Position numbers and translations under genes: made by a program. Positions 6,246 through 54,498 of a DNA stretch of 64,000 nt are shown in pieces (position 1 is the stretch's first letter; every line of letters begins with the position of its first letter). The notes under the pieces were generated by a model, which saw only the letters and a list, made by a program, of their open reading frames with translations, was not told the DNA's origin and made no database searches. Origin of the DNA: Escherichia virus TH41; the sequence record MT446412.1. The stretch is one strand, 5' to 3'.

Positions 6246-6274
6246 GTTTACTTTCACCACGGATGGTGTATAAT
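6246..6274 (+). promoter_or_regulatory. Early-type promoter (GTTTAC-17-TATAAT)
   Basis: Consensus-like hexamers with 17-nt spacer; leader cacatgaggaaaacaaaATG is repeated at 16799-16818. Confidence 0.5.
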
Positions 6275-6303
6275 GAATTTCATCAACACATGAGGAAAAC
6301 AAA

Positions 6304-6846
6304 ATGAGTAATTTCTTTGAAGAAGGCAAGTTTTACAAGTTCGCATCTGAAAATGCCAAAAAACAGTTTATTGCCGGAGGCTGGGCAGCTAATTACCAAA
6401 TTGCCAAATACATCGGTATGACTCCGTTTGAAGTTAAGATTGTCCCTGATACTGCTAGCGGTGGAAGAAAAGTTTGTGAGATTCGTTTGATTGATGAAAA
6501 GAATTTTGTGGATTTGGCAAAAATATCTGGTGCAGAAAACAGGCATCATGGGGCAATGTTTGTTTCTGCTGGTCCATTGTCTGATGAATTTGATTATTTC
6601 ATCCAAGCGGAAGTTGGCGTTAAGCCAGAAGTTGAACCTGTGCCAGTAAAACTTGCATCAGTTTGGAAATTGCTTGTGGTTAAAAATGGCAAGATTGAGA
6701 TTAACTCTCGTCATGTGTCAAAAGAATATGCGGAAGGCGAAGCAGAGCGTCTGTTAAACCATGGTACTGCAGAAGATTGCTATATTATCAAAGGCGATAT
6801 CACAAAAGCTTCTATCATTAAACAAGTAAAACAGGAGACAATCTGA
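6304..6846 (+). CDS. Hypothetical protein
   Basis: 180 aa ORF, strong RBS GAGGAAAA 6 nt upstream. Confidence 0.5.
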   Translation: MSNFFEEGKFYKFASENAKKQFIAGGWAANYQIAKYIGMTPFEVKIVPDTASGGRKVCEIRLIDEKNFVDLAKISGAENRHHGAMFVSAGPLSDEFDYFIQAEVGVKPEVEPVPVKLASVWKLLVVKNGKIEINSRHVSKEYAEGEAERLLNHGTAEDCYIIKGDITKASIIKQVKQETI

Positions 6847-9076: not shown

Positions 9077-9331
9077 ATGTCTTTAAATAAACAATTACAA
9101 CACGCTCTTGAACTGCAACGCACTGCATGGAATAACGGTCACGAAAACTACGGCGCATCTATTGATGTTGAAGCCGAAGCACTGGAAATTCTGCAGTATT
9201 TCAAACATCTTAACCCGATTCAAACCGACCTTCGCGCAGTGCTCGAAGCAAAAGATGAACTGAAATTTGCTAAGCCGCTGGCATCTGCTGCGCGTAAAGC
9301 TGTTCGTCATTTTGTCGTAACCCTGAAGTAA
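9077..9331 (+). CDS. rIII: rIII lysis-inhibition accessory protein
   Basis: 84 aa from ATG 9077 (RBS GAGG 8 nt upstream); ENYGASIDVEAEALEILQYFKHLNPIQTDLRAVLEAKDELKFAKPLASAARKAVRHFVVTLK resembles recalled T4 rIII; the track ORF from 8942 is treated as an unlikely N-terminal extension. Confidence 0.6.
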   Translation: MSLNKQLQHALELQRTAWNNGHENYGASIDVEAEALEILQYFKHLNPIQTDLRAVLEAKDELKFAKPLASAARKAVRHFVVTLK

Positions 9332-9728
9332 GCTGTAGGTGATTCGCTACCTTAGTGCGGCTAGAAAATCGAGGAGCCGCCGAATTATCTGATTAATGAT
9401 TTGCGAATCATTATAGTTTTAGACCCCGATAATTTTGTGGTGTACCTCTTGAATGTTATTCTTATAGCGGCAAGTGCATGCTACCCCGAGGTGATGGCCA
9501 ATCGGGAGTACGCCTCAAGGCCTATATATCCATCAGTATATATCTTATCCTCGAGAAATCGAACCCGGAACCTTTAAGCTAACGGTGTGCAACAGATAAG
9601 AGCTATAAGGTATGATGACGAGGTTTATGGTTATCCTGTCGTTAAATATCCGAAACCTAATGTTCCCTTCGAGGGCTTGCGCAGGCAATGCCAATAAGTC
9701 CTGCATTCTATTTTAAAGAGAATTTAAT

Positions 9729-9890
9729 ATGGCTAAGAAAGAAGTTAAAGTTGTTGATGGCTCCTCCAAACGCGCTGGTTACAAGCGTGCGTCCAACAAG
9801 CGAATCAATCAGGTAACTGATAAACTTCAGGCTCGTGCTCGTGCGGTATTGCGTGCCGATGCAGCTTGCTTTGGTAAGCCGAAAGCATAA
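9729..9890 (+). CDS. Small basic hypothetical protein (53 aa; not in ORF track)
   Basis: ATG with RBS AAAGAG 8 nt upstream, Lys/Arg-rich product, followed directly by a strong terminator. Confidence 0.35.
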   Translation: MAKKEVKVVDGSSKRAGYKRASNKRINQVTDKLQARARAVLRADAACFGKPKA

Positions 9891-9895
9891 GTTCA

Positions 9896-9919
9896 GGGAC
9901 TCTTCGGAGTCCCTTTTTT
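9896..9919 (+). terminator. Intrinsic terminator
   Basis: Hairpin gggactcTTCGgagtccc followed by TTTTTT. Confidence 0.7.
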
Positions 9920-9934
9920 ATTTTCCATAAAGGG

Positions 9935-9964
9935 GTTTACAACAGGGTTGGTCCAGTGCATAAT
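9935..9964 (+). promoter_or_regulatory. Early-type promoter (GTTTAC ... CATAAT) with conserved leader
   Basis: Leader cataatgattccatactgagtta is identical to the one at 33432-33454. Confidence 0.5.
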
Positions 9965-10005
9965 GATTCCATACTGAGTTACACAATAAAACACTGGAGA
10001 ATAAA

Positions 10006-10374
10006 ATGAAAATCAATCTTAACTCATACATCAAAGGTAAAGACCACGACGGTTACAAAGCCATTGAAACTAAAGAAATGCAATGGCACTTGTATAAAGA
10101 ACAATTTGAATTCGTTTCTTGCATGACTCCAGAAGGTCCTTCTGATGACTTCTCCTGGAAAATTATGGTAACAAACTTTTTTACTGGTGATACCTACGAA
10201 CTGAAAACTTTGATTCTTGGTAAGATTCGTTGTAAGACCTATGAAGATGAAGAAACTGGTTATTCTGAAGATGTTACATGGTATCAAAATGGTCGCACCA
10301 CTGCTGATGATTTGATTGAAAAAATGAAAGCTAAGGGTGAATTAAATTTAGATAATTGGATTAAAGTCGCATAA
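10006..10374 (+). CDS. Hypothetical protein (30.x-type cluster)
   Basis: 122 aa ORF; RBS GGAGAA. Confidence 0.5.
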   Translation: MKINLNSYIKGKDHDGYKAIETKEMQWHLYKEQFEFVSCMTPEGPSDDFSWKIMVTNFFTGDTYELKTLILGKIRCKTYEDEETGYSEDVTWYQNGRTTADDLIEKMKAKGELNLDNWIKVA

Positions 10375-10378
10375 AACA

Positions 10379-10407
10379 GTTTACTTTGGTACAGGTTATG
10401 ATATTAT
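10379..10407 (+). promoter_or_regulatory. Early-type promoter (GTTTAC-17-TATTAT) inside a 9-bp perfect inverted repeat
   Basis: ggtacaggt ... acctgtacc (about 10388-10418) flanks the -10 hexamer. Confidence 0.45.
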
Positions 10408-10445
10408 AGACCTGTACCAACAAATGAAAACAACTGGAGAATAAA

Positions 10446-10811
10446 ATGAACTACATCAACTTTGAACGCAAATATGTTTCTAACTGCATCCCAGGTTCTT
10501 CTGAAGTTATTTGCTTGTGGAAACATAAAAATGGTTCAGTGTGCGAAATTGAGCAGTATATGACTCCTAACTACGTTTATATGCGATTTGAAAATGGTAT
10601 CACTCTTTCAATCACTATGACTGGTTCAACTTTTAAAATTGCTTTAGATGATGATTTCCGTGAACGTGATTTAGGGACTCATCCTTGCTGGAATGGTGTT
10701 AATCGCAAGCTGTTGGTTAAAACTTGGATTCGTCATATCCTGGGTAACAAAGCAAAACCTGAACACCTGGAAGCAATCTTTGATGTAGTTCTTAATGAAT
10801 TTGATATCTAA
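10446..10811 (+). CDS. Hypothetical protein
   Basis: 121 aa ORF; leader ACTGGAGAATAAAATG shared with ORF 10006. Confidence 0.5.
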   Translation: MNYINFERKYVSNCIPGSSEVICLWKHKNGSVCEIEQYMTPNYVYMRFENGITLSITMTGSTFKIALDDDFRERDLGTHPCWNGVNRKLLVKTWIRHILGNKAKPEHLEAIFDVVLNEFDI

Positions 10812-13100: not shown

Positions 13101-14633
13101 ATGATTTTAGATATTTTAAATGAAATTGCTGCAACCGATTCCACTAAAGAGAAACAAGCTATTCTGGAATCGTATTCTGACAATGAAACCCTCAAACGTG
13201 TGTATCGTTTGACATATTCCAAAGGCATCCAGTTCTATATTAAGAAATGGCCAAAACCTGGGGCAACGACTCAAAGCTTTGGCATGTTGAATATCGATGA
13301 TATGCTTGACTTTATCGAATTCACATTGGCCTCTCGTAAATTAACAGGTAATGCTGCAATCGAGGAATTATCTGGCTATATTGCTGATGGTAAAAAAGCA
13401 GATGTTGAAGTCCTGCGCCGTGTGATGATGCGTGACCTGGAATGCGGGGCATCCGTATCAATTGCAAATAAGGTTTGGAAAGGTTTAATTCCTGAACAAC
13501 CGCAGATGCTCGCTTCTTCCTATGATGAAGCCGGTATTGCCAAGAACATTAAGTTCCCGGCCTTTGCGCAATTGAAAGCCGACGGCGCCCGGTGTTTTGC
13601 AGAAGTTCGTGGCGATGAGTTGGATGATGTTCGATTGTTATCCCGAGCTGGCAACGAATACCTAAAGCTTGACCTCCTTAAAAAGGAATTGATTGAAGCT
13701 ACTCGTGAAGCGCGTGAGAGACATCCTGAGGGCGTTTTGATTGACGGTGAGTTAGTATACCATGAACAGAAAATAGCTCCCCAGAATGATGGTTTGGGCT
13801 TCCTTTTTGACGATTCAGATGAGATTGCCCCTGCACAAGAAACTGCGGAATCAAGAACCTTTTCAAATGGTCTGGCAAACAAATCATTGAAAGGAACTAT
13901 TTCTGCAACAGAAGCTGCTTGTATGAAATTCCAGGTTTGGGATTATGTTCCACTGATTGAAGTCTATTCTGATGTTAAGATTCTCAATCCGTTGAAATAC
14001 GATGTGCGTTTTGCTGTTCTGGAAAAGATGATTGCAGATAACGTGGTGCTGCATGGTTTCGACCGCATGATTCTGATTGAAAACCATGTTGTTAACAATC
14101 TCGATGAAGCGAAGGTTATCTATAAGAAATACGTGGATGAAGGTCTTGAAGGTATTATCCTTAAGAACATGGCATCGATTTGGGAAAACAAGCGCTCAAA
14201 GAACCTGTATAAGTTCAAAGAAGTAATTGACATTGCAATGGAAATCATTGGATATTACGAGCACGATAAAGACCCGAATAAGATTGGCGGTGTTGTGCTT
14301 CGTTCTTCTTGTGGTAAGATTACGAATAACTGTGGTTCTGGGTTTAAAGACACAACTCAAGTTAAAGATAAGAAAACCAAAAAATGGGTTACTATTCCGA
14401 TTGAGGAGCGTCATAAAATGGATCGTGAAGCCTTAATGGTTAAAGCCCGTAAAGGTGAATTGGTTGGAATGATTGCCGACTGTGAATGTAATGGTTGGTT
14501 GACTTCCGAGACTCGTAAAGATAATACGGTTGCATTGTTCCTGCCGATTATCAAAGGGTTCCGTTTCGATAAAGACCATGCAGACACATTCGAAGATGTA
14601 TTTGGCGACTGGTCAAAGACTGGGTTAAAATAA
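13101..14633 (+). CDS. 30: ATP-dependent DNA ligase
   Basis: Adenylation motif KADG (FAQLKADGARCF), 510 aa, RBS GAGGTGA; position next to alt as in T4. Confidence 0.9.
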   Translation: MILDILNEIAATDSTKEKQAILESYSDNETLKRVYRLTYSKGIQFYIKKWPKPGATTQSFGMLNIDDMLDFIEFTLASRKLTGNAAIEELSGYIADGKKADVEVLRRVMMRDLECGASVSIANKVWKGLIPEQPQMLASSYDEAGIAKNIKFPAFAQLKADGARCFAEVRGDELDDVRLLSRAGNEYLKLDLLKKELIEATREARERHPEGVLIDGELVYHEQKIAPQNDGLGFLFDDSDEIAPAQETAESRTFSNGLANKSLKGTISATEAACMKFQVWDYVPLIEVYSDVKILNPLKYDVRFAVLEKMIADNVVLHGFDRMILIENHVVNNLDEAKVIYKKYVDEGLEGIILKNMASIWENKRSKNLYKFKEVIDIAMEIIGYYEHDKDPNKIGGVVLRSSCGKITNNCGSGFKDTTQVKDKKTKKWVTIPIEERHKMDREALMVKARKGELVGMIADCECNGWLTSETRKDNTVALFLPIIKGFRFDKDHADTFEDVFGDWSKTGLK

Positions 14634-14634
14634 C

Positions 14635-14656
14635 AAAAGGGCTTCGGCCCTTTTTT
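14635..14656 (+). terminator. Intrinsic terminator after gene 30
   Basis: aaagggcTTCGgcccttt followed by T-run. Confidence 0.7.
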
Positions 14657-16754: not shown

Positions 16755-16783
16755 GTTTACAAGCACAAGGAAGTGCGATACAA
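16755..16783 (+). promoter_or_regulatory. Early-type promoter (GTTTAC-17-TACAAT)
   Basis: Hexamers with 17-nt spacer; downstream leader shared with the promoter at 6246. Confidence 0.45.
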
Positions 16784-16815
16784 TGTTCATATCAATTGCA
16801 CATGAGGAAAACAAA

Positions 16816-17106
16816 ATGAAATCATCTTTTCGCTTTAATGGTCAGGAACTGGTAGTTGAGAATGTTATCCCGGCTTCAGAAGAGTTTGACAGCGCGGTGG
16901 GTAATGAACTGCGGCGTGTGTTTGGCGAAGATAAGAAGTTTGACCTTCGCCCTGTTGAAAACTTTGTAAATTCTGAACAAACAGAAAATATTTTTAATGG
17001 TGTAGTAACTGGGCAACTTGAATCTGAAGCACCAATTGCAATTACAGTCTTTGCTAAGAAAGAAGTTGTAATGACTGCAGCAGGTTTCATTTCATTCCGC
17101 AAATAA
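16816..17106 (+). CDS. Hypothetical protein
   Basis: 96 aa from ATG 16816 with RBS GAGGAAAA; the track start at 16783 lies inside the promoter -10. Confidence 0.45.
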   Translation: MKSSFRFNGQELVVENVIPASEEFDSAVGNELRRVFGEDKKFDLRPVENFVNSEQTENIFNGVVTGQLESEAPIAITVFAKKEVVMTAAGFISFRK

Positions 17107-17133
17107 AAAAGGGACCTTCGGGTCCCTTTCTTT
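17107..17133. terminator. Bidirectional intrinsic terminator between convergent genes
   Basis: gggaccTTCGggtccc flanked by A-run on one side and T-run on the other. Confidence 0.7.
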
Positions 17134-18093
17134 TTATAATATACGTTGACTTCCACCAGAGACTGTTCTCCCAGAACCAGTGAACGTATTGTACAGACTT
17201 GTTAATCCAGATTGAGCACCAGACAAGCGGCTCAATTTGGCAACTTCTGAGTTCAAGTTGTTATCTGAACTAATACCAGATACACCTTTAATAACCTTAT
17301 CTTCCAACCATTCCAATGCCGCAGCTCTTCCCACCGCACCAGTTGACATAACGCGATAAGCAAAAGTCACATCAAATGTAGCTATCTGATTATCCCCTTC
17401 ATAACTCAATTCAGGTGCAGATACACTTACAGGAACACAACCAGTTAACATAACAACCGTATGCGGTAACCCATTACGCGAATGAAGGTTAACCTGAATA
17501 TCAGCTTCAACGTCTTCAGGCAAGGCCCTTAGCTGGGTAACTGGGTCCTGTACAGAGTTGACCCAATCGTTAAATGCTCTAAAGTTCCCTGCCTCTGAAT
17601 CCATTCTAAAGCTCAATACCAACGGAGAATATTCTCTCCCGGTTATCTTGATATTTGGTGCATTATGGTTAAGGTCCATTTCGTAGTTCAATGTGTTATC
17701 CGGAAGCTTAACAGAGTGAACTAATAGACCAGCCGTTGGATAAGCCATATTAAAGAAATCAAGCAGGTAAGTACCAACCTCAAATTCCCCTAGTAACGAT
17801 TGCACAACACGGTTACTCATTGCCCCGATAAGATATTTGCTTATCCCTGATTTGCGAATAAGCTTTTGTGTCCCGGCAGTAACAAGAGTTGTTATCCCCT
17901 GAGTTAAGTCACCTTGTGTTAATCCGAACCAATCTGAGTTAACAGGAAGGTTACTGAATAATGCGCCACCGAACTGGTCCAGAAGATTCTGAGATTTGGA
18001 GGAAGGCGTGGTCGCGAAGACCACACTAAAAAGGTTATTCCTCTGCAAGTCGATATTAATCGCTTGTGTTTGAAATTCTTGTAAAGTAAACAT
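17134..18093 (-). CDS. 54: Baseplate tail-tube initiator gp54
   Basis: 319 aa, N-terminus MFTLQEFQTQAINIDLQRNNLFS resembles T4 gp54; synteny 54-48-29. Confidence 0.8.
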   Translation of the reverse strand: MFTLQEFQTQAINIDLQRNNLFSVVFATTPSSKSQNLLDQFGGALFSNLPVNSDWFGLTQGDLTQGITTLVTAGTQKLIRKSGISKYLIGAMSNRVVQSLLGEFEVGTYLLDFFNMAYPTAGLLVHSVKLPDNTLNYEMDLNHNAPNIKITGREYSPLVLSFRMDSEAGNFRAFNDWVNSVQDPVTQLRALPEDVEADIQVNLHSRNGLPHTVVMLTGCVPVSVSAPELSYEGDNQIATFDVTFAYRVMSTGAVGRAAALEWLEDKVIKGVSGISSDNNLNSEVAKLSRLSGAQSGLTSLYNTFTGSGRTVSGGSQRIL

Positions 18094-24001: not shown

Positions 24002-24391
24002 ATGAATATAAACAAAATGTATAGCGATGTGTCTCCCGACTTATCTACAAGTTGGGATAAAGACGTTGCTAAAGTAACCGGTGCAAGGTCTGTTAAGAAC
24101 AGTCTTCTGGGAATAATCACCACAAGAAAAGGGTCAAGGCCTTTTATGCCTGAATTTGGATGTGATATAAGTAATCAGCTTTTTGAGAATATCACTCCAT
24201 TAATCACAGATACCATTAAACGCAACATCGTCTCCGCTGTGCGGAACTTTGAACCAAGGATAAGCAATCTACAGGTTGCAGTTGTCCCTATGTATGATGA
24301 TAACTCCATTATCGTAACGGTTCAGTTCAGCATTGTTGATGACCCTGATACCCTCGAACAAATCAGGATTCAGCTAAGTCAAAACGGTTAA
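24002..24391 (+). CDS. 25: Baseplate wedge subunit gp25
   Basis: SLLGIITTRKGSRPFMPEFGCDISNQLFEN closely matches recalled T4 gp25. Confidence 0.8.
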   Translation: MNINKMYSDVSPDLSTSWDKDVAKVTGARSVKNSLLGIITTRKGSRPFMPEFGCDISNQLFENITPLITDTIKRNIVSAVRNFEPRISNLQVAVVPMYDDNSIIVTVQFSIVDDPDTLEQIRIQLSQNG

Positions 24392-24416
24392 TGCTTTAAT
24401 TTTATGGCTGTATAAT
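24392..24416 (+). promoter_or_regulatory. Middle promoter (MotA box aaTGCTTTA, 12 nt, TATAAT) for uvsY
   Basis: MotA-box consensus at about -30 plus -10 hexamer; followed by conserved GGTTCTAGACCC. Confidence 0.55.
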
Positions 24417-24444
24417 GGTTCTAGACCCTTACATTGGATACATT

Positions 24445-27932: not shown

Positions 27933-29066
27933 ATGGCTTATACCGTAACTATTGCTCCTTTGGCGGCTACGGCCGTTATTGGAGCAACAACCAATTTCAC
28001 TGCGACCGGTTCCGGTGCTGCAGCTGAAGGTACCGAATCATTTGTCTGGACCGTTGATGGCGTTCCTCAATCTTCTGTGACTGCTGCAATGGATTATGTT
28101 GCTGTTGGTCCAGCAGGCAGTAAGACTATTAAAGTTGTTGCAACAACTACACCAGCGGACGGCGAACCAGAAACAGCTGAAGCCGAAACAACTTTAACTA
28201 TCCAGAATAAAACAATGCCTGCTATTACATTGACTTTAGACCCGGCCTCTGTTACTAAAGAAGTGGGGCAATCTCAAGTTGTTACTGCTAACGTGACAGG
28301 CGCTCCTTCTGGTGCAACAATCGCTTATGTTTGGAAACGAAATGCCGACGTAATCCCAGGACAAACTGGTAAAACAATCACCGTCACCGAATCAGCTGAA
28401 GCAAATTATACATTGAACTGTGAAGTTACTGTTTCAGCAGCAGATTATGATAATGGCACAGCAACTGAAGGTGCTGCTGTTATCTTTGTTAAGAAAACTA
28501 TGTCAGGTGTTTCTGTAACATTAACCCCAGAATCAATTAATGTTCCGGAAGACACCCCAGCCTCTTTTAAAGCGGATGTAGTCGGCGCACCGAGTGGAGC
28601 TACTTTTGCCTATTCTTGGAAGAAAGACGGTTCTCCTGTGGTTGGCAACACGGATACTCTAGCAATCGATACAAGCGCTGAAGGTTCACAGGTTATTGAA
28701 GTTTCTGTTGTGGTTTCGGCGACTGATTATAACCCGGCGACTGTCACAAAAACTGGTAATGTAACAGTCACGGCTAAAGTCGCACCAGTTCCAGATGGTG
28801 AACTACCTTACGTTCATCCGCTGCCAGTTCGTAATTCAGCTTATATCTGGTGTGGTTGGTGGGTTATGGACGAAATTCAGAAAATGACTCTTGCTGGGCA
28901 AGACTGGAAAACTGATGCTCCAGATAGCCCGTATTATTTGCACCGATATACCCTTCAAAAAATGATTACCGACTATCCAGAGGTTGATGTACAGGAATCT
29001 CGTAATGGTCGAATTATTCATCGCACCGCTTTAGAAACTGGTATTATATACGATTACGTTTATTAA
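27933..29066 (+). CDS. hoc: Hoc-like outer capsid decoration protein with Ig-like repeats
   Basis: 377 aa (T4 Hoc 376 aa); repeated Thr/Val-rich beta-type segments (VTANVTGAPSGATIAY / KADVVGAPSGATFAY). Confidence 0.7.
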   Translation: MAYTVTIAPLAATAVIGATTNFTATGSGAAAEGTESFVWTVDGVPQSSVTAAMDYVAVGPAGSKTIKVVATTTPADGEPETAEAETTLTIQNKTMPAITLTLDPASVTKEVGQSQVVTANVTGAPSGATIAYVWKRNADVIPGQTGKTITVTESAEANYTLNCEVTVSAADYDNGTATEGAAVIFVKKTMSGVSVTLTPESINVPEDTPASFKADVVGAPSGATFAYSWKKDGSPVVGNTDTLAIDTSAEGSQVIEVSVVVSATDYNPATVTKTGNVTVTAKVAPVPDGELPYVHPLPVRNSAYIWCGWWVMDEIQKMTLAGQDWKTDAPDSPYYLHRYTLQKMITDYPEVDVQESRNGRIIHRTALETGIIYDYVY

Positions 29067-29072
29067 TTAAAA

Positions 29073-29099
29073 AGGGACCTTCGGGTCCCTTTGTTTTTA
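29073..29099 (+). terminator. Intrinsic terminator after hoc
   Basis: agggaccTTCGggtccct followed by T-run. Confidence 0.7.
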
Positions 29100-29182
29100 T
29101 GGTACTGGGCAAATGTTGCCTGGCATAAAACTCCTGTTTACAAGTTAAAAATTCTATGATAGGATAGCTTCACTAACTCAAC

Positions 29183-29646: not shown

Positions 29647-29650
29647 CCTT

Positions 29651-29678
29651 TTTGCTTCAAATAAAATTGTGGTATAAT
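29651..29678 (+). promoter_or_regulatory. Middle promoter (MotA box TTTGCTTCA, 13 nt, TATAAT) upstream of rnlB
   Basis: MotA-box consensus plus -10; followed by GGTTCTAGACCCC as at 24417. Confidence 0.5.
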
Positions 29679-29776
29679 GGTTCTAGACCCCTTTGCGACT
29701 ATTAATTCCTTTCAGAGAAAGAAAGTATAGTGGGTCTAATTTATAATGATATTTATAACATCAAAAGTGAGAGATT

Positions 29777-30784
29777 ATGTTTAAGAAATACAACAGCCTT
29801 GAAAATCACTATAACAACAAGTTCATTGAAAAGATTCGCCTGCAAGGCTTCACCAGCGGTGAATGGGTAGCGCGTGAAAAGATTCATGGCACCAACTTTT
29901 CATTAATCATTGAACAAGACAATGTAACATGTGCGAAACGCACTGGACCTATCTTGCCTGCAGAAGATTTCTATGGTTATGAAATTGTATTAAAGAACTA
30001 TGCAGATTCTATTAAATCTGTGCAGAAACTTTTGCAGGATATTAATTACCAGGCATACCAGATTTATGGTGAGTTTGCCGGGGCAGGTATCCAGAAGAAT
30101 GTGGATTACGGTGATAAAGATTTTTATGTATTTGATATCCGCGTTACTAAAGAAGATGGTTTTGAATCCGTCCTGACTGATACCTTGATGGAAGCCTTCT
30201 GTATTATCCACAAGTTTAAGGTTGCTCCGCGGCTGGCTACTGGAAGTTTTGAAGACTTGATTAAGCTCCCTAATGACCTGGATTCTGTTGTCCCTGATTA
30301 CAATTTTACAGTGGATAACGCGGGTTTGACTACAGCAAATACCACTGATTTTGATGCAAAGGTGGAAGGTAAAGTATTCACTGCTGAAGGATTTGTATTA
30401 AAACCTGATGTTCCTGCATGGTTACCTAACGGTGAGCGCGTAGCGATTAAATGCAAGAACTCTAAATTCAGTGAAAAGAAAAAGTCCGATAAGCCTATTA
30501 AGGCTGCAGTGGTTCTGAGCCAAGATGATATGGATTTGCTGTGGAATTTCACTGATTATGTGACTGTTAACCGTATCAACAATGTTATCAGTAAAATTGG
30601 GGAAGTAACACCTAAGGATTTTGGAAAGGTAATGGGGTTAACAGTCCAAGATATTCTAGAAGAAGCGGGTCGTGAAGGTCTTGAATTATCCCTGACGGAA
30701 AATCCTGTTGAAGTTAAAAAGCAACTCATCGCAAATGTAAGAGAAACATTAAGACATGTTTGGATTGCATTAATTAGTGAATAA
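29777..30784 (+). CDS. rnlB: RNA ligase 2 (gp24.1)
   Basis: [20 protein letters not shown]...[11 protein letters not shown] (nucleotidyltransferase KxHG)...[21 protein letters not shown] closely matches recalled T4 Rnl2. Confidence 0.9.
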
Positions 30785-30786
30785 AA

Positions 30787-30812
30787 AAGGGCCGTAAGGC
30801 CCTTATTCTTTT
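30787..30812. terminator. Bidirectional terminator between rnlB and gene 24 paralog
   Basis: gggccGTAAggccc with A-run upstream and T-run downstream. Confidence 0.65.
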
Positions 30813-32086
30813 TCCAGTGGCGGAAGTTTAACACCAAGATAAGAACTCAATTGGCTTTGGTTGGCCATCTTATCCATATCAGCACCATCAATAATGCGAG
30901 CTTCTTTATCGTCTTTAGCAACGGTGTAAGGGTTCGCAGTCAATGCATAACGAGCTAATAACGCAACAGTAGGCTGCAAGCTTTCAGGGTCAACAATAAC
31001 CTTGAATTCCCCTACCGAGGTATCACCCTCATCATCAACTTCGCTAAGACCTTCCGTATAAGGCGCATAATACAAAGATGCGACCGTCTGACCTTCACCC
31101 ATATCAGCATTTACACCAACAATAACATAATCACATGGACTATTCATATCTGCATAAAGAGGCAAACCGTTCTTCAGAACGCCATAGGCTAATTCATCCT
31201 GGTCTTCCTTTTTCTCAACCCAGCCAGAAGCTGCTAAAATAGCTGCACAGCGAGAAGAAGCGACTGCATATGTACCAGCAAACGAAGTCTGACGTTGAAC
31301 TGCAGAATTCATTTCACACATATAATAATACAGGGTTCGCGCCCGGTCCTGGGCGTTATCATATTTCGGGTCAGTTAGATTCAATACACCTTTTTCAGAA
31401 ACACCTTGCACCTTGAAGCGAGAACTGACAGTAATAAGGGATTGCAGTACATCCTTATTAATTTCCTCTGCCATTTGAATGCCGAGAATATTATCAATGA
31501 AATCCGTTGCATCGAAACCGTTTGCTTCCAGGTCTTGAGCAAGCTCGACAGTTAAAGAAGTTTTCAGCTTTCTGGATTTAACTTCAGTCTGCCATTTATC
31601 AATACGAAAACCAGCTTCAGCAATTTCGGGATGACCTTTTTCAAATTTATCAGTGAAAGCTGCATCTGACATCATTCTTATATGGCCCGCCGCAATGGCT
31701 TCAGAAATAACTTCGCCCAAATCAGTTTCGAGAGTCCCGGCGAATGGTGATGCTTCCAAAACTTTGAACACAACACTTTCAAACTGGAACATATCGCCGA
31801 CTGCATAAGCTTCGTCTTTGTTCGTAAATTCTGGGATATTCTTACGCTCGAACATACCAATCTGACCTGCAAATGTTGCTCCACCAAGATAAGTCATTTT
31901 ATCATCTGGGTTCAGAACACGAACACCATACAGCGCAGCAACAGGCTGAGTAGTTTTCTGTTCAGCCACGAGTGCTTTAAAAATTCGTTTATTCGTGGCC
32001 TGAGTATAAGAAAGCAAATTAGGACGGGCGACCTGGTTGGCCGCCGTTAATGTTGATTCGTGAATTAGTGCGTTAATCTTTTGCAT
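30803..32086 (-). CDS. 24: Head vertex protein gp24, divergent second copy
   Basis: 427 aa; QPVAALYGV, KSRKLKT.LTVELAQDLEANGF, EINKDVLQSLITVS, ANPYTVAKDDKEARIID shared with the adjacent copy and T4 gp24; start abuts the upstream copy's stop (TAAATG). Confidence 0.8.
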   Translation of the reverse strand: MQKINALIHESTLTAANQVARPNLLSYTQATNKRIFKALVAEQKTTQPVAALYGVRVLNPDDKMTYLGGATFAGQIGMFERKNIPEFTNKDEAYAVGDMFQFESVVFKVLEASPFAGTLETDLGEVISEAIAAGHIRMMSDAAFTDKFEKGHPEIAEAGFRIDKWQTEVKSRKLKTSLTVELAQDLEANGFDATDFIDNILGIQMAEEINKDVLQSLITVSSRFKVQGVSEKGVLNLTDPKYDNAQDRARTLYYYMCEMNSAVQRQTSFAGTYAVASSRCAAILAASGWVEKKEDQDELAYGVLKNGLPLYADMNSPCDYVIVGVNADMGEGQTVASLYYAPYTEGLSEVDDEGDTSVGEFKVIVDPESLQPTVALLARYALTANPYTVAKDDKEARIIDGADMDKMANQSQLSSYLGVKLPPLEKE

Positions 32087-33367
32087 TTACGCCTCATAAA
32101 TGATTGGCGGAAGTTTAACACCGAGCAGATAAGACATATTGCTCTGACCGGCCATTAAATCCATATTGGTTGCATCGATAATACGAGCTTCTTTATCGTC
32201 TTTAGCAACGGTGTACGGGTTAGCTGAAAGTGCATAACGAACCATCAGAGAGATAGCCGGTTGCAAACTGTCAGGGTCCACAATGACCTTAAACGCGCCC
32301 ACGTGTTCTTCATCATCTAAGTCCAGGCCTTCGGTATAAGGAGCATAGAAGATTGAGCCTACGACTTCATTTCCGCCATAATTTTCTTTAACGCCAACGG
32401 TTACATAATCTAATGGACTGTTAACATCACAGAATACAGGAAGACCATTAATCAAATAACCGTATGCTGTTTCAGGAAGCCATTGTTCATCTTCAGGTTT
32501 ATGCTTCAGCCAACCAGAACCGGCCAGCATAGCAGCAACACGGCTAGAGGCAACAACAAAGGTACCGGAATAAGATGTAGTTTTCTGAATCTCGGAGTTC
32601 ATTTCGCAAACCAGTTCGTACAGTTTACGTGCGCCTTCTGGAGCTGCATCATATGTTAAATCGATGACGCCATTGTCAGAAACCCCAGTTACTTTATAAC
32701 GCTTGGAAACGGTAATAAGAGACTGAAGAACATCTTTGTTAATTTCATCTGCCATAATAGTGGCAAGCAAGTCTTCCAGGAAAGCAGGAGCATTAAACCC
32801 ATTTGCTTCCATATCCTGAGCAAGCTCAACAGTTAATGCAGTTTTCAATTTACGTGTTTTAACCGGAGCATTCCATTTGTTAACCTGGAATACGGCATTG
32901 CTAATTTCAACATCACCGGCTTCAAATTTCTCGGTGTGCGCCGCATCAGGAACCAAACGAATGGTTAATGCAATAAGACCTTCTTGCAGAACATCGGATA
33001 ATACAGTTTCGGTAGTCGATGCAAACGGATTATCAACCAGAGCTTTATAAACGGTATTCTGAAATTTAATGTATCCGCCTTTAGCTACGGCCTGAGTTGG
33101 AGTTGTAAATTCCGGAATTGTTTCACGGTCTTTTGAACCAACTTCACCACCGTAAACGGCACCGGTTTGGAAACTGAATTCATTATCAGGAGTAAGATAT
33201 TTAACACCGTACAGAGCCGCAACTGGCTGGTTCGTACGTTGTTCAGCGATAATATCGCGGTAAATCAATTTGGTTGTAGCGCGGGTCAAAGCAACAAGAT
33301 TCGGGCGGCCCAATGAGTTGCTGGTAGTAGTAGTTGACTCGCGCAGTAATTTGTTAATCTTTGCCAT
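32087..33367 (-). CDS. 24: Head vertex protein gp24, T4-like copy
   Basis: 426 aa; N-terminus MAKINKLLRESTTTTSNSLGRPNLVALTRATTKLIY matches recalled T4 gp24 closely. Confidence 0.85.
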   Translation of the reverse strand: MAKINKLLRESTTTTSNSLGRPNLVALTRATTKLIYRDIIAEQRTNQPVAALYGVKYLTPDNEFSFQTGAVYGGEVGSKDRETIPEFTTPTQAVAKGGYIKFQNTVYKALVDNPFASTTETVLSDVLQEGLIALTIRLVPDAAHTEKFEAGDVEISNAVFQVNKWNAPVKTRKLKTALTVELAQDMEANGFNAPAFLEDLLATIMADEINKDVLQSLITVSKRYKVTGVSDNGVIDLTYDAAPEGARKLYELVCEMNSEIQKTTSYSGTFVVASSRVAAMLAGSGWLKHKPEDEQWLPETAYGYLINGLPVFCDVNSPLDYVTVGVKENYGGNEVVGSIFYAPYTEGLDLDDEEHVGAFKVIVDPDSLQPAISLMVRYALSANPYTVAKDDKEARIIDATNMDLMAGQSNMSYLLGVKLPPIIYEA

Positions 33368-33393
33368 TTGCGCTTTCCTTTTGTGATATACTT

Positions 33394-33401
33394 TATTTAT
33401 A
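33394..33401 (-). promoter_or_regulatory. Late promoter (TATAAATA on minus strand) for gene 24
   Basis: Reverse complement of tatttata, about 27 nt upstream of ATG 33367. Confidence 0.5.
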
Positions 33402-33407
33402 AAAGTT

Positions 33408-33437
33408 GTTTACAACCAGATTAAGATAAGACATAAT
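33408..33437 (+). promoter_or_regulatory. Early-type promoter (GTTTAC ... CATAAT) with duplicated leader
   Basis: Promoter plus leader cataatgattccatactgagtta, identical to 9959-9981. Confidence 0.5.
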
Positions 33438-33478
33438 GATTCCATACTGAGTTAACAAACAAAACCCTGGGGTCCAAA

Positions 33479-33760
33479 ATGAACAAAGCAACTTTCCTTC
33501 TGAACACCTTTAAAAATCTGGAAATTGAAGTTATTGCATTGGTCAACAAATACCCGAATGGTGTTAATGGTAATGCTCTGAACAAACTAGTTAAAAAATA
33601 TGAAAACTTAGCATATGACACTGATTTCTGGTGGAATGGTAATTATTCTACTCACACTAAAGATAAAAATGGTAACTGGTTGAAACTTCAAGAAAACAAT
33701 GTTAACTTCAGAGACCTCATCAAGCGCCGGGTAGAAGTTCATTTAAATGGTATGGTATGA
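33479..33760 (+). CDS. Hypothetical protein inserted between genes 24 and 23
   Basis: 93 aa ORF on the strand opposite the head genes, flanked by an early promoter and a terminator. Confidence 0.45.
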   Translation: MNKATFLLNTFKNLEIEVIALVNKYPNGVNGNALNKLVKKYENLAYDTDFWWNGNYSTHTKDKNGNWLKLQENNVNFRDLIKRRVEVHLNGMV

Positions 33761-33770
33761 AAACAAGAAA

Positions 33771-33795
33771 GGGACCTCAAGGGTCCCTTTTTATT
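33771..33795. terminator. Intrinsic terminator (hairpin plus T-run)
   Basis: gggaccTCAAgggtccc followed by TTTTTATTT. Confidence 0.65.
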
Positions 33796-33810
33796 TAACT
33801 TAATCTAGGA

Positions 33811-39743: not shown

Positions 39744-39816
39744 CTAGGTAATATGATTCATCATCTCAAGATAATGGCTTCCCAGAATCAACCACAGGAG
39801 TCCGTAGAACCGATTA

Positions 39817-39842
39817 TGCTTTTATTTATAACACTGTATAAT
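39817..39842 (+). promoter_or_regulatory. Middle-promoter-like element oriented antisense to genes 18/19, inside a 10-bp inverted repeat
   Basis: taTGCTTTT box, 13 nt, TATAAT, GGTTCTACGG; ccgtagaacc (39802-39811) and ggttctacgg (39843-39852) form a perfect inverted repeat; a minus-strand TATAAATA (39823-39830) overlaps it. Confidence 0.35.
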
Positions 39843-39883
39843 GGTTCTACGGTTTCTAACTGATTAATTCTAAGCGATGATAA

Positions 39884-53464: not shown

Positions 53465-53469
53465 GAATA

Positions 53470-53491
53470 AAAAAGGGACCCGAAGGTCCCT
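53470..53491 (-). terminator. Intrinsic terminator after gene 8
   Basis: gggaccTTCGggtccc followed by TTTTTT on the minus strand. Confidence 0.65.
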
Positions 53492-53493
53492 TG

Positions 53494-54498
53494 CTAGAAT
53501 TCAAAAATAATGTTAACTTCTTCTGTCTGGTCCATTGCACGAATAATCGGTGGGCGGTTTTCCATATAAATCATTTCCCCGGAATGACGGTCCAAATCAA
53601 TTGCATCGTAGTATTCTTTGATTGCTTTGATATTTGGGTCATTAGGATGTACTTTAACTTCAAGTGGGTTGGATATAATCGACAGCTGGCGGAAGCCTTT
53701 GTTCCCCGGGAGACTGAACTCTGGGAAATAAATGGAATCCATAAATGCTTTAAATCTGATTGTATATCCTTTGATTCTGTATATTAAACCGAAATCATCT
53801 TGTTGCCAGCTGATATTGTCTTTGTAGCCCCAACGTGATGGGTCTTCTTCGATTTCTTCAGGCCATGGAACAACAATATATTCGTTAGTACAACGGTTGA
53901 TGGATACATCAGGTGGAATCTCATACAAATATTCCCAGAGATAACCATCGCCCATATCGACTCGTCCTTCTGTATCACCAGTCCCAGCTGGAGCTCTCGT
54001 CGAGTTATATTCTGCAGTCCATTTACCACCGAGTTTTAAACACTCTTCTTTATTGATAATAGAATAAATGGAGCAAGTCCCAACATCAGGAACGTCTACA
54101 CAACGATAAACCATCCAACCTTTACCAACATCAGTTCGGTTATACGGAGCACTGTTAGCTACAACAATTTCCCCTACCTGGAAGTTAAGCGGATTGGGAT
54201 ATCTGATATCGCCCCAGTCTTTACGTGGGACAACACAATCAAGCATTGACTTATAAACTTTGACTGCACCCATCATATTTGTCCAAGTATCTTCAACACC
54301 TTGCGCTGTGTCAACCGGATAAGGAGGGGCGAACCCCGGGTCATTCTCATTCGAAGCCCAGGGTTCAGCGCGACCGAATGTTACATACATCGTATTCTGG
54401 TCGGGCTCGTTACCAATCATTTTATAAAAGTTATACATTTTTTCAGTTCGAAATTTCGAGGTAATTATCGAACGATAAACTACAGATGAATTATTCAT
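53494..54498 (-). CDS. 8: Baseplate wedge protein gp8
   Basis: 334 aa, same length as T4 gp8; synteny. Confidence 0.8.
   Translation of the reverse strand: MNNSSVVYRSIITSKFRTEKMYNFYKMIGNEPDQNTMYVTFGRAEPWASNENDPGFAPPYPVDTAQGVEDTWTNMMGAVKVYKSMLDCVVPRKDWGDIRYPNPLNFQVGEIVVANSAPYNRTDVGKGWMVYRCVDVPDVGTCSIYSIINKEECLKLGGKWTAEYNSTRAPAGTGDTEGRVDMGDGYLWEYLYEIPPDVSINRCTNEYIVVPWPEEIEEDPSRWGYKDNISWQQDDFGLIYRIKGYTIRFKAFMDSIYFPEFSLPGNKGFRQLSIISNPLEVKVHPNDPNIKAIKEYYDAIDLDRHSGEMIYMENRPPIIRAMDQTEEVNIIFEF

Follow-up and report, generated by a model that had tools for sequence, protein, structure and literature searches.

The window, by which we mean the whole 64,000-nucleotide stretch analysed here (Escherichia virus TH41, MT446412.1), was assigned by sequence comparison to Gaprivervirus, the T4-like group of VR7, SP18 and UPEC01. 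Positions 139962 to 72262 of VR7 are collinear with the window in reverse orientation, with identities of 82-94% over its whole length, and early genes lie on the window + strand. Two loci on this strand share a promoter-leader unit. Copy A, around which identity to UPEC01 reaches 99.9%, lies at the junction between a gp30.9-like ORF (9729-9890) and a gp30.8 homologue, while copy B lies between the late genes 24 and 23, upstream of a 93-aa ORF. The features of the two loci are as follows.

9895-9914, + strand: terminator hairpin of copy A, AGGGACTC-TTCG-GAGTCCCT (terminator scan; RNA fold -14.2 kcal/mol, z = -4.0)
9935-9941, + strand: copy A -35 element GTTTACA (hexamer TTTACA at 9936-9941), followed by a 17-nt locus-specific spacer at 9942-9958
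9959-9981, + strand: copy A invariant block, with -10 hexamer CATAAT at 9959-9964, discriminator GATTCC and ATACTGAGTTA
9982-10005, + strand: 3' part of the copy A leader, with Shine-Dalgarno (SD) sequence GGAG at 9996-9999 (read from the sequence)
10006-10374, + strand: gp30.8 homologue of 122 aa downstream of copy A (phrog_1507, E = 3.6e-49; VR7/SP18 annotation)
33380-33414, + strand: A/T-rich tract and -35 element GTTTACA (33408-33414) of copy B; this upstream half has orthologues in JS98, a Mosigvirus and T4
33432-33454, + strand: copy B invariant block, with -10 hexamer CATAAT at 33432-33437 and putative start A33444
33455-33478, + strand: 3' part of the copy B leader, with an SD-like GGGG run at 33469-33472, followed by ATG at 33479
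33479-33760, + strand: 93-aa ORF downstream of copy B (phrog_6003, E = 3.6e-47), early-strand, with late genes 24 and 23 on either side
33766-33792, both strands: bidirectional terminator hairpin ending the copy B unit (terminator scan; fold -17.0 kcal/mol, z = -3.8)

Exact copies of the 23-nt sequence CATAATGATTCCATACTGAGTTA lie at 9959-9981 and 33432-33454, both on the + strand, and no third copy was found in the window at up to 3 mismatches; in 100 dinucleotide-preserving shuffles the chance expectation was 0 matches. In both copies GTTTACAAC lies 24 nt upstream of CATAATGATTCCATACTGAGTTA, with GTTTAC at 9935-9940 and 33408-33413. The exact identity and the upstream -35 element that a first-pass annotation had described at the two loci were thus both confirmed. 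A sigma-70 scan recovered TTTACA-17 nt-CATAAT at 9936-9964 and 33409-33437 as sigma-70-type promoters, each scoring 10/12. Over the 71-nt units, 51 of 71 positions are identical between the two copies, and this identity is distributed unevenly: 9/9 in the -35 block, 4/15 in the rest of the spacer, 23/23 in the 23-mer and 15/24 in the leader. The repeat finder extended the similarity to 52 nt at 83% (its family D3), and the similarity does continue, as had been claimed, well beyond the -10 hexamer and within the predicted transcript.

At copy A, the 8-bp, GC-rich hairpin and its T-run (9895-9919) terminate the upstream gp30.9-like ORF and lie 20 nt before the -35 element, with the T-run and an A/T-rich tract continuing to 9934. 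An identical hairpin stands before this promoter in VR7, VR20, VR25, VR26 and SP18, and a similar one in T4. The likely start of transcription is A9971, the A of CCATAC, which would put the block at -12 to +11; this start and its counterpart A33444 were placed from spacing alone. The SD is followed by the ATG at 10006, and GGAGAATAAAA (9996-10006) fits the strong RegB/S1 consensus GGAGRAYARAA at all positions in a leader that is predicted to be unstructured; T4 has an identical GGAGAATAAAATG at the orthologous gene. As judged from these elements, copy A fits completely the description of a T4/PST-type promoter-early-stem-loop (PeSL) cassette.

Two further observations concern the surroundings of copy A. 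The approximately 400 nt between an rIII-like ORF and gp30.9 (9331-9729) contain no convincing ORF and gave no Rfam match; UPEC01 annotates just 58- and 34-aa hypothetical ORFs there, and 9461-9608 is replaced by 47 unrelated nt in VR7. Downstream, the gp30.7 early promoter (10379-10448, GTTTAC-17-TATTAT) contains a 9-bp inverted repeat, GGTACAGGT (10388-10396) and ACCTGTACC (10410-10418), which straddles the -10 hexamer; its leader ends in ACTGGAGAATAAAATG, as does that of copy A, and the T4 30.7 promoter is arranged alike. This promoter matches the PeSL subclass with a stem-loop over the -10 hexamer.

Copy B is a partial cassette, having no upstream stem-loop and having lost its GGAG in the window. 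The terminator scan found no hairpin upstream of it, because the divergent gene 24 start (start codon at 33367-33365, - strand, 41 nt upstream of the -35 element) occupies this space. The sole hairpin of the unit, at 33766-33792, lies 3' of its ORF, between the convergent 93-aa ORF and gene 23. The invariant block of copy B is kept in 6 members of the genus with a single C-to-T change, in VR7. Positions 33455-33478 are the most variable stretch of the copy B intergenic region in the 6-genome alignment. The SD region reads CCCTGGGGTCC here, without GGA, and GGAG is present in five relatives. Relatives carry CTGGAGTTTAAAAATG here, and their GGAGTTTAAAA is a partial match to the RegB consensus.

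Over 33455-33478 as a whole the window reads CCCTGGGGTCCAAAATG, and UPEC01, SP18, RZ and P896 read CCTGGAGTTTAAAAATG (P896 with one A fewer), with VR7 carrying a 4-nt deletion; in the 6-genome alignment the GGAG of copy B, and hence any RegB site, is lost only in this phage. Homologues of the 93-aa ORF occupy the equivalent slot in Dhakavirus and Mosigvirus, and in T4 the 24/23 slot is occupied by segD in the same orientation. The PHROG search assigned both downstream ORFs and two upstream ORFs to families of unknown function, with the exception of rIII. Additionally, a 198-nt direct repeat of 74% identity (30818-31015 and 32105-32302; D1) corresponds to two tandem gene 24 (capsid vertex) paralogues, annotated 24(1) and 24(2) in VR7, as determined by position and by the VR7/UPEC01 annotation.

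Searches of related genomes showed that the two copies belong to a larger set. The exact 23-mer was present in 6-7 copies per genome in VR20, VR25 and VR26. VR7 contains 11 copies at up to 3 mismatches, each shortly upstream of an ATG and all on the early strand, consistent with T4-type early promoters; the genes that follow them are ORF287c, 277c, 30.8, 190c, 147c, 146c, 145c, 098c, nrdC.8, 045c and srd. When an 80-nt cassette query was run against phages, it matched 10-16 places in each of approximately 35 Gaprivervirus records and 0-1 places outside the genus, with the exception of Morganella phage MP1 (4 places); T4 records gave no match at E <= 1. A profile search likewise recovered 11 full-length copies in VR7, where approximately 20 generic early promoters matched only up to the -10 hexamer, and copies A and B as the sole full copies in the 64-kb window. 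Most of the cassettes stand before small ORFs without a known function, in regions that are plastic. For the family in general this agrees with the small-ORF setting named in the first-pass annotation, but copy B departs from it, since it serves a single early-strand ORF between late genes 24 and 23.

The aligned copies have a common anatomy. An upstream terminator hairpin is found in most units and a hairpin with T-run is often present in the alignment, followed by AAAAAGTAGTGTACA (or GTTTACA), a variable 17-nt spacer, a G, (C/T)ATAATGATTCCATACTGAGTTA, C(A/C)(C/A)AA(T/C)AAA, a variable A-rich stretch and usually CTGGAGAATAAAATG. Across the family the -35 element is GT(T/G)TACA and the block from -12 to +11 is near-invariant; a column-by-column comparison of 13 copies showed conservation at the -35 block and weak conservation in the spacer. 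The first base of the -10 hexamer is C in copies A and B, and other copies have TATAAT. Copy A carries TTTTTTATTTTCCATAAAGG and copy B ATATACTTTATTTATAAAAGTT, the family consensus being TTTTATTTTAAAAAGTAG, and in this both conform to what is expected of a PeSL. The leaders, which are similar as previously noted, contain no stem-loop: RNA folding predicted no structure in either (z = 0.0 and +3.1), and the stem-loops of these units are flanking terminators. Rfam gave no match to any known leader RNA or riboswitch over the whole window.

Beyond Gaprivervirus, MP1, which belongs to Gualtarvirus and not to Tevenvirinae, has the block at 4 or more promoters, with 1-2 changes that fall only at -6 to -2, and Dhakavirus IME341 has it once. 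CATACTGAGTTA (-1 to +11) is identical across Gaprivervirus, MP1 and IME341, and the discriminator positions just upstream vary. At the MP1 and IME341 loci, cassette and cargo may have moved jointly between genera. We also observed that two of the MP1 copies and the single IME341 copy precede ORFs starting MKLQR(H/N/E)SIK, and that the IME341 copy is annotated beside a DUF5417 domain-containing protein. A possible host origin was looked for in 5,426 E. coli genomes, which contained no match to the block, and neither did 185,579 species genomes. A degenerate scan for the core returned 9 extra IMG/VR metagenomic contigs, none of which had a promoter context; these were taken to be chance matches.

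Comparison with homologous loci in relatives was performed as the first-pass annotation had suggested, and it showed that indel junctions between related phages fall inside the cassettes. VR7, VR20 and VR25 contain three tandem cassette-plus-ORF units (ORF147c, 146c and 145c), of which VR26 lacks exactly one 369-bp unit (ORF146c and its cassette). The cassette that remains in VR26 is an exact chimera: as far as the block its sequence is identical to that of the left VR7 cassette, and beyond the block to that of the right one, which places the crossover inside CCATACTGAGTTACCAAATAAA. At copy A, SP18 has an additional ORF of 351 nt (gp30.6A) with a second hairpin behind it (GACTCCTTCGGGAGTC and a T-run), and this module separates the T-run of the first hairpin (GGGACTCTTCGGAGTCCC) from CATAAAGGG-GT(G/T)TAC. 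The SP18 insertion thus lies between hairpin T-run and -35 element, and the indel is therefore bounded by two directly repeated similar terminators. Furthermore, T4 has segD in the 24/23 slot, where three other genera have the 93-aa ORF, in each case behind the orthologous promoter half. These junctions come from relatives and from other loci, and none was found at copy A or copy B within the window; the direction of the events, given here as insertions or losses, is presumed. Taken together, the comparisons support a role of the cassettes in gene shuffling, with patterns like those described for PeSLs.

Copies A and B are thus, very probably, members of a genus-wide family of early-transcription cassettes that also act as PeSL recombination homology. 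Each cassette would constitute a strong host sigma-70 promoter, comprising an A/T-rich UP-like tract, GT(T/G)TACA, a 17-nt spacer and a (C/T)ATAAT -10 hexamer, with the stretch from the -10 to approximately +11 almost invariant. Downstream of this stretch come a leader that is rich in A and unstructured, an SD of the GGAG type and the start codon (ATG) of a small early gene. Most cassettes, copy A among them, lie behind the intrinsic terminator of the preceding gene, which would shield the unit from upstream transcription. Host RNA polymerase would be expected, from the promoter sequences, to fire the cassettes right after infection and, by analogy with T4, RegB/S1 cleavage at the consensus site in the SD region of copy A may turn the message off a few minutes later; promoter activity, start sites at A9971 and A33444 and RegB cleavage are all predictions of this kind. 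As direct repeats of 25-50 nt in 10-16 copies, the cassettes provide portable recombination homology, and recombination among them would delete, insert or swap the ORFs between them, as in the mechanism proposed for PeSLs. The recombination role would be a by-product of cassette repetition.

One feature is not accounted for by the promoter itself. The positions from +1 to +11 are invariant, in contrast to the freely varying spacer; this invariance is not explained by standard sigma-70 contacts, and an additional function may therefore be missing from the description above. It is conceivable, if unlikely, that the core CATACTGAGTTA is an added recognition element, either an operator for a phage or host protein that co-regulates these early promoters, for instance in early shut-off, or a 5'-RNA element (AUACUGAGUUA) that acts in stability or translation; either would come on top of the promoter function. 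Consistent with such an element, only 11 of the approximately 30 early promoters of VR7 carry the block, the core is identical in Gaprivervirus, MP1 and one Dhakavirus, with varying discriminator positions just upstream of it, and the spacer is free to vary; moreover, the mechanism by which T4 early promoters are shut off is described in reviews as not understood (PMC2988021, PMC3014915). Against it, no candidate binding protein was found, the block is without dyad symmetry, the leader is unstructured, and Rfam, E. coli genomes and bacterial genomes gave no match. The invariance could also stem from recent recombinational spread or from horizontal transfer of the cassette. We regard it as similarly unlikely that the core, CATACTGAGTTA in DNA or 5'-AUACUGAGUUA in RNA, defines a separate immediate-early regulon common to Gaprivervirus, MP1 and one Dhakavirus locus, with a dedicated factor acting on the DNA (at an operator for early shut-off or activation) or on the mRNA 5' end, and with horizontal movement of cassette and cargo between distant Straboviridae.

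The sequence CATACT at -1 to +5 resembles a second -10 hexamer, which might indicate a tandem promoter one helical turn downstream or a sigma-70 pause site, although we regard this as improbable. The critical A2 and T6 are kept, and the end of the block coincides with the expected position of a second start. In several copies TTGACC stands 16 nt upstream of CATACT, and of the 33 distinct copies 12 match at least 4 of 6 positions of a -35 hexamer there, compared to approximately 14% in the null. However, the 33 copies are not independent and those with TTGACC come from two locus families; copy A has 3/6, copy B 4/6 and the MP1 copies 2/6. Support for the tandem promoter is weak and confounded by lineage, and we know of no factor that uses such a sigma-70 promoter-proximal pause in T4-type phages. 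Promoters for NAD capping have the consensus HRRASWW; a reading of the block as such a promoter was rejected, since TCCATAC does not fit.

A private and recent duplication, in which one window locus supplied the promoter and leader of the other, for instance on entry of the 93-aa ORF into the 24/23 slot, was implied by the original description of the pair as duplicated. The identity of 23/23 in the block, 9/9 at the -35 block and 15/24 in the leader would suit this reading, but the age of the promoters contradicts it and leaves it highly improbable. In T4 the 30.9/30.8 junction has a terminator and an early promoter whose -10 and initial transcribed region is TAGTATtatcttacac, with no block. 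JS98 (Dhakavirus) and APCEc01 (Mosigvirus) conserve the 93-aa ORF together with the upstream promoter half TTTATTTATAAAAGTTGTTTACA in the 24/23 slot, where the -10 region is TACTATAGACCTATC and the block is absent; T4 retains TTTATTTATAAAAGTTGTTTACA as well, there driving segD, and again without the block. Both promoters, as these alignments indicate, predate the genus, and the common ancestor with T4, JS98 and the RB69-like phages would have had them. Both loci are, moreover, genus-fixed with their own spacers (4/15 between copies A and B). Since the orthologous promoters of T4, JS98 and the Mosigvirus lack the block, it must have been imposed on existing promoters in the Gaprivervirus lineage.

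In addition, the leader of copy A is nearer to VR7_65100 (22/24) than to that of copy B (15/24), and the upstream part of copy B is nearest to VR7_46951 (23/33, vs. 17/33 with copy A). The two copies are two members of a multi-copy family and, their own orthologues aside, are not each other's closest relatives, so that neither a duplicated pair nor a locus-to-locus duplication could be upheld. The block spread through short-tract recombination among promoters, through selection for the sequence or through both, and not through one copying event between A and B. Finally, chance or generic sigma-70 consensus similarity, which is favoured only by the -35 and -10 hexamers, is refuted as the source of the match by the absence of matches in the shuffles, by the 17 of 23 identical bases that lie outside the -10 hexamer and by the other early promoters in the window (6246, 10379, 16755 and 2650), which lack the block.

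Besides this family of cassettes, the window contains other dispersed repeats. GTTTAC-type early promoters at 6246-6307 and 16755-16819 share a leader and ribosome-binding site, CACATGAGGAAAACAAAATGA (21/21), and form a second subfamily (D7). Middle promoters resembling the MotA-box type, with TGCTT approximately 12 nt upstream of TATAAT, lie at 24382-24428, 29650-29690 and 39808-39849. All three share GTATAATGGTTCTA, two of them through GACCC (repeat families D5/D9), so that promoters of the early class are not alone in having an invariant initial transcribed sequence. Near-identical terminator hairpins of the types AAAAAGGGACC-TTCG-GGTCCCTTT and AAAGGGCTTCGGCCCTTTTT (D2 and D6) are also dispersed at the following positions, and these constitute additional short direct repeats, which could provide homology for recombination.

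17102-17137, 29065-29100, 30780-30815, 33762-33797 and 53466-53501: terminator-hairpin repeats
1075-1100 and 14630-14655: further terminator-hairpin repeats

Approximately one third of the early promoters of the genus share an invariant initial transcribed sequence, which offers a cheap and testable handle on how immediate-early expression is tuned or shut off in T4-type phages. These results also extend the PeSL idea to another T4-like genus, in which the loss or gain of a 369-bp gene unit can be read from an exactly chimeric cassette; equivalent promoter slots carry different cargo from genus to genus. The block is also of use in genome annotation, since it reliably marks the early transcription units of Gaprivervirus and MP1-like phages.

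The promoters of MP1 are among the closest known systems. Oliveira et al. (2017, PMC5384007) reported 12 promoters in this phage, and the passages searched do not discuss a conserved transcribed part or recombination. The MP1 promoters, which were predicted with MEME and are annotated as 'promoter' in KX078569, have a similar architecture, carry the block TATAATGATTTCATACTGAGTTA with 1-2 differences and lie before small ORFs; MP1 differs from Gaprivervirus in genus and host family and in having fewer copies (at least 4). No genome paper on VR7 turned up in a literature search for this phage and early promoters.

T4 early promoters have a GTTTAC-type -35 element, a UP-like A/T tract and a consensus that extends beyond the canonical hexamers (Hinton, 2010; PMC2988021). 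The 30.8 and 24/23-slot promoters described here are positional orthologues of T4 promoters, which differ at the -10 and in the initial transcribed sequence (TAGTAT tatcttacac and TATTAT aatcatatac). The strong RegB/S1 cleavage consensus GGAGRAYARAA is known from the translation-initiation regions of T4 early genes (Uzan and Miller, 2010; PMC3014915). Copy A has this consensus exactly, in an unstructured intergenic leader, and is a predicted site, whereas GGGGTCC of copy B in the window cannot be one; regB is encoded by VR7.

PeSLs were described in RB49 and phi1 at approximately 50 per genome, mostly upstream of ORFans, and were proposed to be recombination substrates (Arbiol et al., 2010; PMC2839356), with a few inside virion modules beside genes of unknown function (PMC2839356). 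Gaprivervirus has 10-16 cassettes per genome, and copy B also lies within a virion-gene module. The promoters of RB49 and phi1 have almost perfect TTGACA and TATAAT hexamers, and their Gn-loop-Cn stems frequently lie between the -35 and -10 or overlap them, whereas the stem in Gaprivervirus is an upstream terminator.

A close parallel is the PeSL of the T4/PST type, which consists of an A/T tract, TTTACW-N17-TAYWAT, an upstream stem-loop and an SD with ATG (Comeau, Arbiol and Krisch, 2014; PMC4122927). It likewise lies before small variable ORFs, at indel or replacement junctions between close relatives (PMC4122927), and copies A and B fit TTTACW-N17-TAYWAT save for the C at the first -10 position. 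The likeness to PeSLs that the first-pass annotation had pointed out therefore holds for the early promoter, the A/T tract, the SD and ATG, the many copies, the indel junctions and the upstream hairpin of copy A, but not for a hairpin at copy B. The published description of the T4/PST type does not include a near-invariant 22-23-nt stretch from the -10 to +11; moreover, Gaprivervirus is another genus, and copy B is without a stem-loop. PeSL-type regulatory repeats are thus already known, and the Gaprivervirus family is a new, genus-specific instance of them.
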